NCBI GenBank assembly: GCA_030141605.1
Contig: JAQGDQ010000012.1
Coordinates: forward strand, 1,134,359-1,198,358
DNA: 64,000 bases
Direction: 5' to 3'
Origin: Tubiluchus corallicola
Lineage: Eukaryota > Animalia > Priapulida
Positions 42,183 through 48,398 of this stretch are shown here, in pieces. Below the pieces are notes generated by a model, which was not told the origin of the DNA, did no database searches, and worked only from the letters and a program-made list of their open reading frames with translations. Both the position numbers and the translations under genes were made by a program. Every line of letters starts with the position of its first letter. Within the stretch, counting starts at the first letter, position 1.

Positions 42183-45100
42183 CTATTGCCTAACTTTAAC
42201 ATTCCACCATTTAAATCTGAAAGGTTTTCTCCGCTGATTGGTTCCACAGTGAATGCCACCGTCAAAAATATGAAAAGCATTCCAGTCATCAACAAAATGA
42301 GTGGTGAGGCCGTGTGGTTCAAATTTTTTGCTGACATACGCTTCCAGTACATCTACGCCATTTACAACAGGCCCGAATGGTTTAGGTATGATAAGTTGGT
42401 TGTTCACAACCAGCATGTTTACCATGTCTGTAAAAAAGAAAAAATTGTATTTTCTATTCCATAATATATTTTATAATATTTTATCTTTTATCTACCAGTA
42501 CAATTAGTCGTTTTGTTTTACAGTAAAACAAGGTACATTTTGACTTATTGTGAATATTGTACAGTTTTTGTTAGATAACAGCAAATCGTCAATCACTTTA
42601 TCTAGTTGTCGACATACTGACATACTCGGAAAATATGAAGATGCTCTAAAACTGCCAATAATTGTGTCTTCCACAAAGAGAAAAAGAACTGGTATCTCTA
42701 AAACGTCTTCGTCAGTTATTCCTAGTTCGTTCTTGAGGATTTCCCTGTTCATGTCAATGTAATGCTGTAAAAGACAATAGAATCAAGGTTATTAGCAAAA
42801 AGTGGAATTAAAAATTATTTTACTTTGAATTAGTCCATTTTGGCTTGAGCATATTTTCTTTAAAAATGAAATGTATATTACAAGTGCATTTATATGTATA
42901 TTTAGCTTTTATATTACACCATTTGTTAGACGTACCTGGCATTCCATATTATCAGAGTAAAGCATATCATCGGTAGCTATCCTATGCACGCTTATAGTTG
43001 CCTTGCCCTGGTAGTAGGCATGCTTCTTTCCTGAAAACAGCTTCAATGCGCGAGTGCTTTTGTTTTTTGTGAGTCCATCAATAATGTCGTAGAAAGCCTG
43101 TGGACTGGCCAGCACTACCTTAAAGCCCTAAAAAACTTGATTATCAGCTCAGCAAGACTTCAAAAATTATAATTATCCAGAAATTTCAAAATGTACTTAA
43201 ATAAGTGACAGCATTTATTTAGACTTGGTGCATCCTAAAATTCTGTTCTGTAGTATTACTAGTATGTTAATTCCAGCATGATGCCATGCTTAAGAAACTT
43301 ATGGGCTCGCTAATACTGGTCCAAGTCATCCATCATTTGATTGTCTGTGTGCATGTTTGTTGCAGTGCAATAGTATAAGAGAATAGTATTTTGAGATCAA
43401 GAACATATTAAGATCATTTATCCACCAGCTTGGAACTAGGTTCCATATTAACACATCAGTACAGTAGCAGTGAAACCTAGCTAAATGAAATACTAAGTGA
43501 AGCCTAAAAAAGCATTCTTGTTGCTAACAGATCGTCCTAAATAAGATAATTATGGTAATTATATATTATGGTCACTTGGATGTTAGGAGCTTTGGTGATA
43601 AAAGGGAATTTGTGGTCAGCAAAGAGGTGCATAAAGAGTGATTTCAACTGGGGATTAGTATGCATGGTACATTAGCTATTGTGGAGATTCTAAGAACAAT
43701 TTAGGATACCAGTGTATTGCTTACCTTGCTGTTATTGGATGGAACAAAGGTAACAAATTCATCAACATGGCCGACATACAGCCAGTCCGAGTAGAGCTTC
43801 ACTGGACTTTGCACTTTCTGAGCTTTAAGGAAAAACCAGAGCTTGTCAGAGAGTACTCTTACATCTTTTGCATATCTGCAACACACGTAAAGTGTGCATA
43901 ACTTGCAGCTCTGCTCCAACTATTAAACTTTGCTGTTGCTTGGTTGTGGTATACATATACAAGGAATGACTTGGTTGAAGATGGTTAGAAAAGAAAAGCA
44001 GAGTAAAAATGCTAGTGAGAAAAATTTTGAACTAGACATGATGAGAGAGGAGAAAGTAAGGATTGTCACCAGTGAGTATAACCATAAGACAAAAAATGGA
44101 GAATGTAAAAAACAATGTTACTATATCATAATATCAGTACGTCTGGGCAATAGTTACTATGGGTAGACAACAGAAACAAGAACGCTCAAAAAATCTTTTT
44201 CCTGATACTTTGTACTGTTTACGTGTGCCTCAAAGACTTGAAAATGGGATAAAACAAATTAAATTGCTTTGGAATTGCATACTATGCTCACACCCTGGAT
44301 CTCCATTTCCTATCAAGATTCGTCCAAGTGGATATTCTATTCCATTAACGGTCACTGGTGGACTGACCTCTAAGTTACCAAAGTAGTCTAATTCAGTGAA
44401 GTCGCTATGGTTGTCATCTTGGAAAATATCTACGAATCCAACATTGGGCCCCTATCGTTAAAGTAAAAAATTTGAAAATGTATTCAACCTACTGTACATA
44501 TGTAACTACATGCTAGATGGTATATAAGTGTTCGATCACAATCTATAACCCAACATGTGCACAAAGAATTAAGAAATTAAGGTCATAATAAAACTCTTTT
44601 CGCAATAGATAAAGCTCACAATAGTTCAGAAAAAATAATGCAATAAAGAATCAATGACTTATATTGTTTTATTATTTCCGATTTTAGGTCTACTATATGA
44701 CTTTGACAAAATGTAGTACATGTATATAATTTAGTGTGTACCGAATGTTAACATTTTCATTAATAGGAACAAGTAATAAAATGCTTGGTCCATTTGACTC
44801 TCATTGTCTTTATTAAATATACCTAATACGTGCAACTTACCAATTCTTGCTTAGCACCGTATTGGTTTAATCCTTTTCCAGTGTCTCTGGGTGAGGACAA
44901 AACAACAGCCATCGGATGATGCTGAGGCATTTCAGCATAGCCAAACTCTAATTGGTCCTATTACAAAAAATCATTAAGCGTATACAGTAAGAAATTGTAT
45001 ACGGTAATACAGTAAGTGTGCATCTCGAATCGCTCACATAGTCCGTTTATTCATCATGCCATCAGTTCATTCGTCGACTCATACATTTATGGTACTTTTA

Positions 45101-48100
45101 ACAGAAATCTTATTCTTTCAATCCATATGTGACGAACATACAGCAAAGTGTTTGGTTACCATATGCAATGTGTGTTTCTGTTTGATCACTGCTGGCGTGG
45201 TTATGCTGCTCATAGCCAACTGGTCATTTAAAGCCTTTCATGTATTTTTTAATACAGTTTGGCACCTTGCAAACTGGAATCCAGCCCTCAGTAGCATGGC
45301 CTACTTAATGTGGATGGTTGTGGTGGATCAAAACCTTGCTCATTGTCAAAAGTAAGCTTCTGTGGCTCATTATCAAAATGTGATGATAGATGTTGAACTG
45401 GCATGGTAAATGAAATTGCCAAGAGCAAATATTGACCATTGGGGTTATGAATCCATCCAATCACTGACCAGTCATGGAGTTGCTTAAATTTGGCTAAGGA
45501 TGCACCGTGACAACGACTCAGCTTATCATCTTTTGGAAAGACAAATGAAGGGTAGAAACTTCACTATGAAAATTGTACAAAGAGAGCACCAAACTTTTTC
45601 TATCCTGCGGGGCTGCACTATAAGAATCAGAAGACATCACCTAATGTGTGGCTGTCCAAGTAAGAAACAACATGCAATACATTGAGAACTTGGTGGTGAA
45701 ACGATGACGAAGGAGACTGATGCGACAACACTGACTTTAGTAACGGCATAGGAATGATATTAGACAATGTGGCTCATAGATTGTAACCATCTTTGAGAAG
45801 AAAACATCTACTATCATTAGGAAAGGAAAACCACAAGCAAGCAGTCATACATTCACACACGATTTACTTACTCGTACAATCATCATTCAGTCATTTTTGG
45901 CCTTTATCCATTGCTCATTTGTCTATTCATTTCTTATCATAAGTCTCACTGGTGCAGCATTTATTTGTTAGCTGGTTGATTTGCTGGTTGGTTAACTGGT
46001 AATTTGGTTGATGGTTTGTTTGCTCAGTTTTCTGTATTTGTTTGTTAAACTATTTGTTGTGTTCACTTTCGCTCATTCCTTAGTCACATAGTGGTTTGCA
46101 AATAAGTTATCATCTTCAAATTATCAATCACAATTTCTTTATTGTGATGTTCTGCAAATAGTAACAGGGACAGAGACAAAAAGTTTTACTTGTATCCATC
46201 TGTCTCCATTGCATATTTTCTTCGGACACATACGGATTTCAACATTAGGCATGTCTTGCATTATGCCCTGAAGTTCAGCTAGGAAAGTTTTAGTTTGCCG
46301 GTTTACAACTCCATAGATGGTATCAGTTTGTAGAGTATTTGGTGTCATAATCCAAGGCGTTACTGTAAACAGGACTGAATCTTTGAAAATAAGAGATGCG
46401 CCCTGAAAGAGTAAAATTAACATTTACATTGAAAATTTTTTAATGATAATGACATATATAAGCTATCAATAAGCATTTATAATTGCATTTCTATCAAACA
46501 ATATATATGTTATATATTATGGAGACTTTTCAGGCAACAACTCATGGTCATTGATGAAGGGAGATCGGGATGGTTAACAATGTGGATCAAGCAGGGATGT
46601 GTAAATGTCAGGTTTCCTCTTTCTCTTGACAATTGACTATGTAAAGAGGATAGTGGAAGACAGCTGGAGGACGGACATAAGATTGAGGTTTTATACATTA
46701 CTTGAAGATTTGGATTTTCCAGATGATTTGGTGCTGGTCTCATTGGAGTTTGAATATAATACAGATGAAGACCACAAGGCTCATTAGGAAGCAGAGCAAG
46801 TAGGATTAGACTAAGCTGCAGGAAATGTAAAATGATGAGGTTGAACGCAGGGAGTAACATGAGGGTGAATGTGGGAGGTGAAGAGGTGGCAAGAGGATAT
46901 AGAAGAGTTTGTATACCTTGGAGCATAATGTCAAATACAGGTGAATGAACACAGGATGTGGTAAGCAAGGAATACCGGCATGAGGACGAAAGGTTGGTGC
47001 TATTGATTAGAAGCGAAACGTGGAAGACAATGAGGATGGAGGAGATAAGAAATGGGGAAGGGCAGTGAAAGCAGGAAAGAGGTATGTGGGATGGAGGAGT
47101 TGAAATGATACCAGAGCTGTGGCAAAGAACAGGAGGGTATCTCGACTGTATGTGTTCTGACATGGTAGATGCTAATTAAGTGAGTACAAGGCAATAACAA
47201 GGTTTGACAGTATCCTTACATAACTGTCAATACATTTGACGTTGATGTCTTAGTTGATTATATAATAGCCAGTATTGGGAACTTGCAAAAATGATTTCAT
47301 TCATTTAGTATTCGATTAATCTGTTCTAGATTTGTAGTTGGGCTTGCATTATTTTTCTCTGCAAATGCATTGCTGAGCAACATCTCATTTTTTTGTTCTG
47401 CGTTTTAGTAATCAGAACATTGAAATTTAGGCTGCATACTGTATAAACGCCTAGATAAAGATGAAAATGTCCGTCGAAGTCTCCATCAGGAAATTTCATG
47501 GCCTCAGCATAGAGCTTTACAACTCTTTTTCCTCTGTATGGAATATTCACACTATTTGAGCTAGATGGATTCAAGATGTTTTCTAGACTTTCAATTTGCC
47601 CTGCATACATAAAAAATATTTATATAGTGACAATCAAGAAGTATAATTTATTGTTTTTTTCTAAACTATGCTAAAAAGAATAAACACACCAAATAAATAA
47701 TTTTTCTCTTGATTATGGCGAGTTTTCAAAGTTTCACTCACCAAAAGAGTTAACATTAGCTTTGAATATCCTCACGAGATTCCGTTTCCTGTTTTCTGTG
47801 AATAAGAACATACTGTAGTCTGGCGGTAAAGTTGGTGGACCATCTGAAATTTGACACACTTGAATTTAAAGACACAACGACAGCAGTTTAGAAGTTTGAC
47901 CGGATGAATTGCATGCATGCATTGTCACCATTGATCCTGAATTTTCTTTTAAAAAATAAATAAATTTACGCCCGGTAAGAAGTAAAAAAAATTACAAATG
48001 AAATAATTTAAAAACTGGTCCTTGCTAGGCTCGTTTAACCTACATCTAAAGTTTTAAAGAATCTCACCCTTTAACTATTCCAATCGCTAGTTTTTGTTTT

Positions 48101-48398
48101 AGCCAACAGATGGCGCACAAAACAATTTATAAAACCAGAGAATTCATTTTTATACGTGCTTTAGCCCTAATGCTGAATTCACTGATAATTTTGCAAAACG
48201 TTTTTCTCTCTTTCTCGCTCTCTTCCTGTATCTCTTCCACATACCAGTTCTAATGATAACTGGACTCAAGTCCTTCAAATCGCGGCTTCCCGAAACCCAT
48301 TCGTCGTCCGAGTCACGCAACTTTGCATGATTTCGATCTCGGTCAACATTCGGAATGATGATTGCTCCATAGCCAGATGGACCCCATTGCCAAGAGTT
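42183..48398 (-). CDS. PADI: Peptidylarginine deiminase (animal PADI type; PAD_M and catalytic PAD_C domains), at least 10 coding exons (543 aa); the 5' exon(s) are uncertain
   Basis: Minus-strand exons 48245-48398, 47742-47843, 47440-47600, 46190-46402, 44841-44957, 44294-44451, 43725-43875, 42936-43127, 42626-42764, 42183-42427; all GT-AG, in phase and stop-free (1632 nt). PAD motifs: [159 protein letters not shown]. Confidence 0.95.
46530..47180 (+). mobile_element. RTE-like non-LTR retrotransposon RT fragment inside a PADI intron
   Basis: Fragments [34 protein letters not shown] (FADD-equivalent), [21 protein letters not shown]; frameshifted. Confidence 0.8.

Follow-up and report, generated by a model that had tools for sequence, protein, structure and literature searches.

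A gene for a peptidylarginine deiminase (PADI) lies at 42183..48398 on the minus strand of a 64,000-nt stretch of Tubiluchus corallicola DNA (the window, meaning the whole stretch analysed). The gene is real and nuclear rather than bacterial contamination, and it encodes a divergent animal-lineage PADI with altered calcium sites. It is fairly probable that this is a spliced, vertically inherited animal-lineage gene in a likely invertebrate host, with a predicted weakening of calcium control.

Gene model and shared splice positions

The coding chain consists of ten exons on the minus strand, running from 48398 down to 42183 with consistent phases and separated by nine introns of 141 to 1232 nt, all of the GT-AG type. 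Joined, the exons (1632 nt) give 543 codons and a single terminal stop, with no internal stops. Nine of the ten exon translations match Pfam PAD_M or PAD in the order of the model, and over its full length the joined protein aligns with hedgehog PAD4 residues 137 to 664 (41% identity, E 2e-136). Pfam recognizes both PAD_M and the PAD_C pentein (PF03068), the combination that defines the PADI family (PF03068 + PF08527); the pPAD/agmatine deiminase type, which is without PAD_M and not PF03068, does not fit. The GC content of the coding sequence is 41%, compared with 40% in the neighboring GRHPR gene and 35% in the whole window. The original prediction, made from the sequence alone, had described ten in-phase exons encoding a stop-free PAD_M+PAD_C protein in a spliced animal gene rather than a bacterial contaminant, and the intron borders, the Pfam order, the PAD4 alignment, and the splice positions held in common with amphioxus and vertebrates bear this out.

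DNA sequencing runs from the same organism cover the PADI region evenly, and runs X1 and X3 show no differences inside the PADI exons among the differences listed. Contigs from a relative (run X5, about 92% alike) extend over exons 5 and 6 with adjoining intron DNA. Five of the six listed exon-6 differences in this relative are synonymous, against an expected 19% (p ~0.001; 0.02 if 35% is assumed). A sequencing run guessed to be RNA covers only GRHPR and repeats in this region. The gene had also been called solitary in the window, which holds upstream, where tblastn finds no second copy; below 42183, Pfam scans restricted to the longer open reading frames (ORFs) find none. Rfam gives no match.

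Splice positions were compared with breaks in annotated isoforms and fragments of other PADIs, taken from proteins and not from genomic DNA, since a literature search turned up no exon tables for human PADI. Eight of the ten positions fall within one residue of such a break and nine within two, a match reached by none of 200000 random sets. The exon-1 acceptor and the positions at residues 85 and 139 correspond to breaks in amphioxus, residue 352 to breaks in fur seal and electric eel, residue 416 to one in rattlesnake, and residue 301 to one in an unnamed fragment, while Xenopus and amphioxus both have isoforms that skip exon 5 at precisely these two borders. These shared positions favor one animal origin over a second transfer, which on the exon borders is unlikely. 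Exon 8 (42936..43127, PAD_C) is unbroken where vertebrate proteins have a break. The last intron, with its phase-1 donor at the end of the PAD_C exon 9 (42626..42764; donor 42626), lies about two codons before a break in the rattlesnake PADI model and may reflect intron sliding.

Several details of this section weigh against the vertical reading or soften its support. The p-value for the splice match is generous, since the 11 comparison breaks are protein-based and were chosen by hand with the window introns in view. In addition, the match at residue 301 comes from the unnamed fragment, those at residues 85 and 139 lie in indel-rich stretches, the intron at residue 51 is without a match, and that at residue 462 is two codons off. 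The synonymous count likewise draws on six listed of ten differences in one low-depth contig.

Active site and calcium ligands

Residues were compared in a 51-row alignment with 20 animal rows, using PAD4 numbering. Catalytic D350, H471, D473, and C645 correspond to residues 211, 338, 340, and 523 of the window PADI, and the substrate residues W347, V469, and R372 to residues 208, 336, and 234. All of these, R372 as the arginine of an SPR motif, had been named from the sequence at the outset, and the alignment confirms them. W347 is encoded with Q349 in exon 4 (46190..46402), the link between PAD_M and PAD_C; D350 and R372 in exon 5 (44841..44957), one of the exons covered by the relative X5; V469, H471, and D473 in exon 7 (43725..43875); and C645 in exon 10 (42183..42427), which also holds the stop codon and matches human PAD4 with E 7e-24. 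In PAD4, D350 and D473 grip the guanidinium group, C645 attacks it, and H471 serves as acid and base; ammonia leaves and water frees citrulline.

The ligands of Ca1, Ca3, and Ca5 are retained (Q349, E353, and E411; N153, D155, D157, D165, D176, and D179; D168; E252). Exon 1 (48245..48398; PAD_M, Pfam E 4e-13) carries the Ca3/Ca4/Ca5 equivalents of N153, D155, D157, D165, D168, D176, and D179, exon 3 (47440..47600, PAD_M) that of E252, and exon 6 (44294..44451) the Ca1 ligand E411. Three ligands, overlooked in the original prediction, are changed: E351Q and D369S at Ca2, both in exon 5, and D388N at Ca4, the switch residue, also numbered D389, in exon 6. Among the 20 animal rows, E351 is Glu in 18, D369 is Asp in 17, and D388 is Asp in all 20. 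Because three near-invariant animal ligands are changed, calcium control is likely altered, and full calcium-switch function appears doubtful. A point against the main reading is that D369S occurs among the animal rows only in two amphioxus paralogues, both of which are also D350N. Amide and hydroxyl side chains at the changed sites may still bind calcium.

A human PAD4 triple mutant at Ca2 retains a kcat/Km of 1.12 out of 25.4 (~4%), with raised calcium half-saturation and loss of cooperativity (PMC5445078), and the D388A mutant retains 2.2 out of 20.8 (~11%), with calcium half-saturation at 4.35 versus 0.6 mM (PMC3559651). Since these mutants are impaired, we propose standard thiol chemistry with a weaker switch. 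The window PADI would citrullinate protein arginines by the usual PAD mechanism and would still need calcium through Ca1, Ca3, and Ca5, though at higher levels and with little cooperativity, making its calcium control weaker and less switch-like than that of vertebrate PADIs. Given that higher requirement, it would be expected to act where calcium is high, as in stimulated or ruptured cells or outside cells. Having lost Ca2 and Ca4 ligands naturally while keeping an intact active site, it would be well suited to testing how such a switch is retuned. It does not fit Clade B, the fungal and actinobacterial two-domain group marked by a switch-position glycine and a triple-histidine linker (PMC8826395): the window PADI has Asn in place of that glycine, and its PAD_M/PAD_C link contains no triple His.

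Origin of the gene and its 5' end

The best BLASTP matches of the window PADI are animal proteins (Priapulus 429 bits, croaker 418, amphioxus 415), and the best match outside the animal clade scores 380 bits. Trees were built from 131 rows, keeping 130 of 165 PADIs that cover at least 430 residues, and later from hand-picked subsets of 50, 24, 17, and 18. Two results here count against an animal affiliation. The protein is 39% to 43% identical to animal and cyanobacterial-type proteins alike, although those are 46% to 63% identical among themselves, and trees of 131, 51, and 25 rows that include distant bacterial outgroups place it outside an animal clade supported at 100/99. When the distant outgroups are left out, it shifts toward the animals, with a branch length of 2.2 to 2.5, and an approximately unbiased (AU) test on 25 rows under LG+G4 does not reject its grouping with animals (p-AU 0.254). 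The phylogeny proposed in the original prediction thus gives a placement that varies with the outgroups.

The larger trees, in which the window PADI branches outside animals plus the Cyanothece-like clade, would suit the idea that this animal lineage received a bacterial PADI by a separate horizontal transfer and that the gene gained introns later, as would a two-domain build and changed Ca2 and Ca4 ligands like those of non-Ai bacterial PADIs. We nonetheless regard such a transfer as highly improbable. It is very improbable that the same splice positions would have evolved on two occasions. The AU test does not reject animal monophyly, and the placement depends on outgroup choice; further, none of the 150 best representatives of 1.84 billion proteins is more than ~46% identical to the window PADI or pairs with it with support. 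A metagenome scan with exon 7 recovered seven loci, all GC-rich and intronless. Shared origin with the vertebrate PADI genes is likely, and under the vertical reading the gene would trace back to one ancient acquisition, the source also of the priapulid, annelid, amphioxus, and vertebrate genes, and would since have evolved about twice as fast.

The gene had been described as intact, and this is not supported, because there is no start codon and ~135 N-terminal residues present in homologues (PAD_N and the beginning of PAD_M) are not found in the 15.6 kb upstream (48.4 to 64 kb). Exon 1 opens at a phase-0 splice acceptor without an in-frame methionine, and the first in-frame methionine is in exon 2 (47742..47843, PAD_M), whose 33 residues have no Pfam match alone and align only within the joined protein. 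The search for 5' exons combined tblastn with 17 and then 165 PADIs, a hidden Markov model of 31 N-termini, and an anchored scan of candidate donors. It found no PAD_N or Ca6 exon in this upstream region, nor the opening PAD_M strand that bears the D-x-D-x-D-R-D-G motif. The best of 1018 candidate donors scored 25.5, compared with 24.6 for the background control and 35 to 98 for true segments, in a scan where a 22-residue exon of a divergent homologue can score only 27. One candidate, which ends near 62258, carries a correctly spaced R-D-G motif; it was rejected for its background score and A-rich composition, and another at 61427 was rejected as lying inside a short-period repeat. Nine ATG-started phase-0 mini-exons lie within 6 kb, none ranked above the others. 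No other gene is found in 48.4 to 64 kb at the Pfam cut-off, with 150 of 172 ORFs of at least 38 residues scanned.

Directly upstream of the exon-1 acceptor is a TA microsatellite (48405..48448). In the assembly, the ATGs at 48478 and 48442 do not share the reading frame of exon 1; a repeat shorter by a single TA unit would bring them into it. A run X3 contig of 391 nt spans 393 window bases around this repeat with two gaps; the shorter length may be due to chance. Farther upstream, a candidate promoter region on the minus strand (49250..49750) has a CpG observed/expected ratio (o/e) of 1.2 and contains initiator-like, CCAAT, GC-box, ETS, and cAMP response element half-site motifs, matches that may be due to chance.

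The CpG pattern bears on where the gene begins. CpG o/e is 0.34 to 0.55 across the bodies of the cytochrome P450 gene CYP (0.34), IK (0.55), GRHPR, and PADI (0.44 in exons 3 to 10), with peaks of 1.2 to 1.3 at the 5' end of CYP and at that of IK/GRHPR. In PADI it is ~1.0 from exon 2 upward and remains high upstream (0.88 over 15.6 kb), which suggests that PADI is transcribed and begins close to exon 1. The window PADI is possibly without PAD_N, and the odds that it lacks this domain and starts within ~1.5 kb of exon 1 are about even.

An ordinary three-domain PADI, with PAD_N exons past 64000 behind a long intron or too diverged to be recognized and near-normal calcium control through compensating changes, is a possibility to which we give roughly one chance in three. 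The exon-1 acceptor is an ancestral intron position in phase 0, the metazoan PADIs described by Cummings et al. are all three-domain (PMC8826395), no gene was found upstream that would bound the locus, and the low attainable score of a short divergent exon could have hidden one from the scan. The remaining nine introns, by contrast, are short, and CpG depletion ends at exon 2, with the upstream 15.6 kb differing from the gene body (Fisher p 7e-5, CpG/GpC); introns of CYP and IK are depleted, whereas the PADI upstream stretch is not. The missing start codon, the long branch, and the three changed calcium ligands could also indicate a 5'-truncated gene on its way to becoming a pseudogene, or a PADI of little or no catalytic activity that persists in a non-enzymatic role, like PADI6, a retained non-catalytic PADI (PMC9174705). 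We consider this unlikely, as 543 codons and nine introns are without a stop, frameshift, or broken splice site, the catalytic and Ca1/Ca3/Ca5 residues are all retained, the differences in the relative X5 are mostly synonymous, and none of those listed for runs X1 and X3 falls in a PADI exon. Rather doubtful as a whole is the idea that the host belongs to an unsampled lineage (ribbon worm, or a group that branched earlier, such as a xenacoelomorph or non-bilaterian) whose active PADI has shed PAD_N and rewired its calcium switch, which would make it the first two-domain animal citrullinating enzyme.

Host, neighboring genes, and known PADIs

The neighbors of PADI are GRHPR and IK, as originally named. 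GRHPR (39469..40461, plus strand) lies tail to tail with PADI and serves as a host marker, and the multi-exon IK/RED gene (25459..36643, minus strand) has ends read by eye from the sequence. GRHPR is 58% to 61% identical to 13 vertebrate proteins and 58% to 63% identical to those of Branchiostoma, Saccoglossus, Ptychodera, and Owenia. Among the best 120 of 4955 matches, no named relative exceeds 65%, and protein P0018 is 91% identical. An IK exon shares 38 of 54 residues with human. The mosaic CpG pattern, expected from invertebrate gene-body methylation (PMC11292947), supports an invertebrate host. Together with the short introns and the sequence distances, it leads us to favor an invertebrate without representation among named proteins. 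GRHPR pairs with the nemertean Lineus at 98/94 in a tree of 52 rows and at 93/88 with 36 rows and a mixture model, but has no support at 23 rows; only one rare residue is shared. Based on GRHPR, we lean tentatively, at somewhat below even odds, toward a ribbon worm.

The claim that the host is not a vertebrate is supported by distances and CpG pattern, but not by the GRHPR AU tests, which reject none of eight alternative placements, jawed vertebrates included (p 0.16). These tests leave room for a vertebrate host, or an invertebrate with an already known PADI, and hence for no extension of range, since hagfish, amphioxus, hemichordates, and Owenia are not rejected either and no named Saccoglossus PADI was found for comparison. 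That outcome seems quite improbable to us, as GRHPR is at most 64% to 65% identical to any named protein, the window PADI is only ~41% identical to the Priapulus, Owenia, and amphioxus PADIs, and CpG is mosaic and not globally depleted.

Other features of the window were recorded alongside. The GRHPR gene is intronless amid an intron-rich region, and its open frame runs upstream (39220-40461, plus strand) to an earlier methionine, with a possible basic leader of mitochondrial type. Between the head-to-head IK and GRHPR genes, 38500-39250 is CpG-rich (o/e 1.2) and likely a shared two-way promoter. The 5' untranslated intron of IK holds a decayed retroelement (~36.8-38.7 kb), and the decayed remains of a reverse-transcriptase element, full of stops and frameshifts, lie directly downstream of IK (~22400-24400, minus strand); weak RVT_1/GIIM matches at 22.5-23.5 kb were taken for a decayed LINE-like element, a group II intron being rejected. 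CYP is multi-exon with an N-terminal extension (~8919-20000, plus strand) and resembles the mitochondrial clan of cytochrome P450; its promoter is likely at a CpG peak in 6000-6750. Upstream of PADI are a very high-copy short repeat with internal rearranged units (~50330-50500; depth >30000 in X1, also in a related genome), a very high-copy tRNA-headed short interspersed element (~56250-56441, plus strand; abundant also in the RNA-guess run) whose core we take to resemble the MetaSINE superfamily, and an (ATAC)n microsatellite of ~440 nt (58713-59155). Runs X1, X5, and X6 carry one species label, yet their coding sequences differ by ~8% to 9%, suggestive of a cryptic species complex.

For invertebrates with PADIs, Cummings et al. 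name Priapulus, Saccoglossus, and Branchiostoma and no others, Priapulus being the sole non-deuterostome and spiralians being absent, which agrees with the picture given in the original prediction; they leave open whether acquisition occurred at the deuterostome or the bilaterian root, and their main text never mentions "intron" (PMC8826395). Neither Owenia nor Lineus is found in the supplement file of that paper. A 2025 study reports padi4 to be absent from its three annelids, Owenia included, and from all other invertebrates (PMC12153100), a statement contradicted by the Owenia PADI in the database (CAH1782438.1). The accessible text of PMC11016909 and PMC9174705 adds no further invertebrate PADIs, and our paper searches, with subscription journals outside their coverage, returned none from nemerteans, other spiralians, or elsewhere. 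Branchiostoma, Priapulus, and Owenia are the only named invertebrates with PADIs in our protein searches, one of which covered the best 120 of 1518 matches, mostly fish, so that there may be others. The expected widening of the range of citrullination is therefore a real extension, but smaller than implied, with an Owenia PADI already in NCBI and the host phylum not fixed.

If the unsampled-lineage reading is true, the shared introns would mean a single acquisition of the bacterial gene, which already had many introns by the time of the last common bilaterian ancestor or earlier. Identical exon borders in an extra lineage, along with the Owenia gene, would point to one early acquisition followed by many losses, with a timing that can be tested through intron positions. 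The window PADI is useful for dating the acquisition of citrullination, and that usefulness hinges on the host and the 5' end.

Compared with known PADIs, the window protein is closest in BLASTP to that of Priapulus caudatus (XP_014670183.1; 41%, 429 bits), likewise an invertebrate enzyme with PAD_M, PAD_C, and the catalytic set. The Priapulus protein, however, keeps PAD_N, E351, D369, and D388 and has a branch of 0.63 compared with 1.45. The spiralian Owenia fusiformis PADI (CAH1782438.1, "unnamed protein product") belongs to the animal clade and is 41% to 42% identical to the window PADI, but has three domains and all calcium ligands, and no tree supports a sister relation; this complete protein (P0142) is encoded on a 32-Mb contig. 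Isoform differences indicate that five splice positions, the two borders of exon 5 among them, are common to Branchiostoma, which in contrast has several paralogues, most with the Ca2 and Ca4 ligands; its two D369S rows also lack catalytic D350. These two rows (P0146 and P0299; D350N, D369S) represent a likely membrane-anchored or secreted pseudo-enzyme, P0146 having a hydrophobic N-terminal stretch. Human PAD1-4 (PF08526 + PF08527 + PF03068; PDB 1WD8, 4N20) share catalytic D350/H471/D473/C645, the Ca1, Ca3, and Ca5 sites, and most exon borders with the window PADI, which differs from them in that PAD_N was not found, in E351Q, D369S, and D388N, in a two-residue insertion after R372, and in being one gene adjoining GRHPR and IK. 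The three-domain cyanobacterial (Clade Ai) PADI of Cyanothece sp. UBA12306 is 40% identical and has the same domain core but, unlike the window gene, is intronless, with an unchanged calcium switch residue and a PAD_N that is present in degenerate form.

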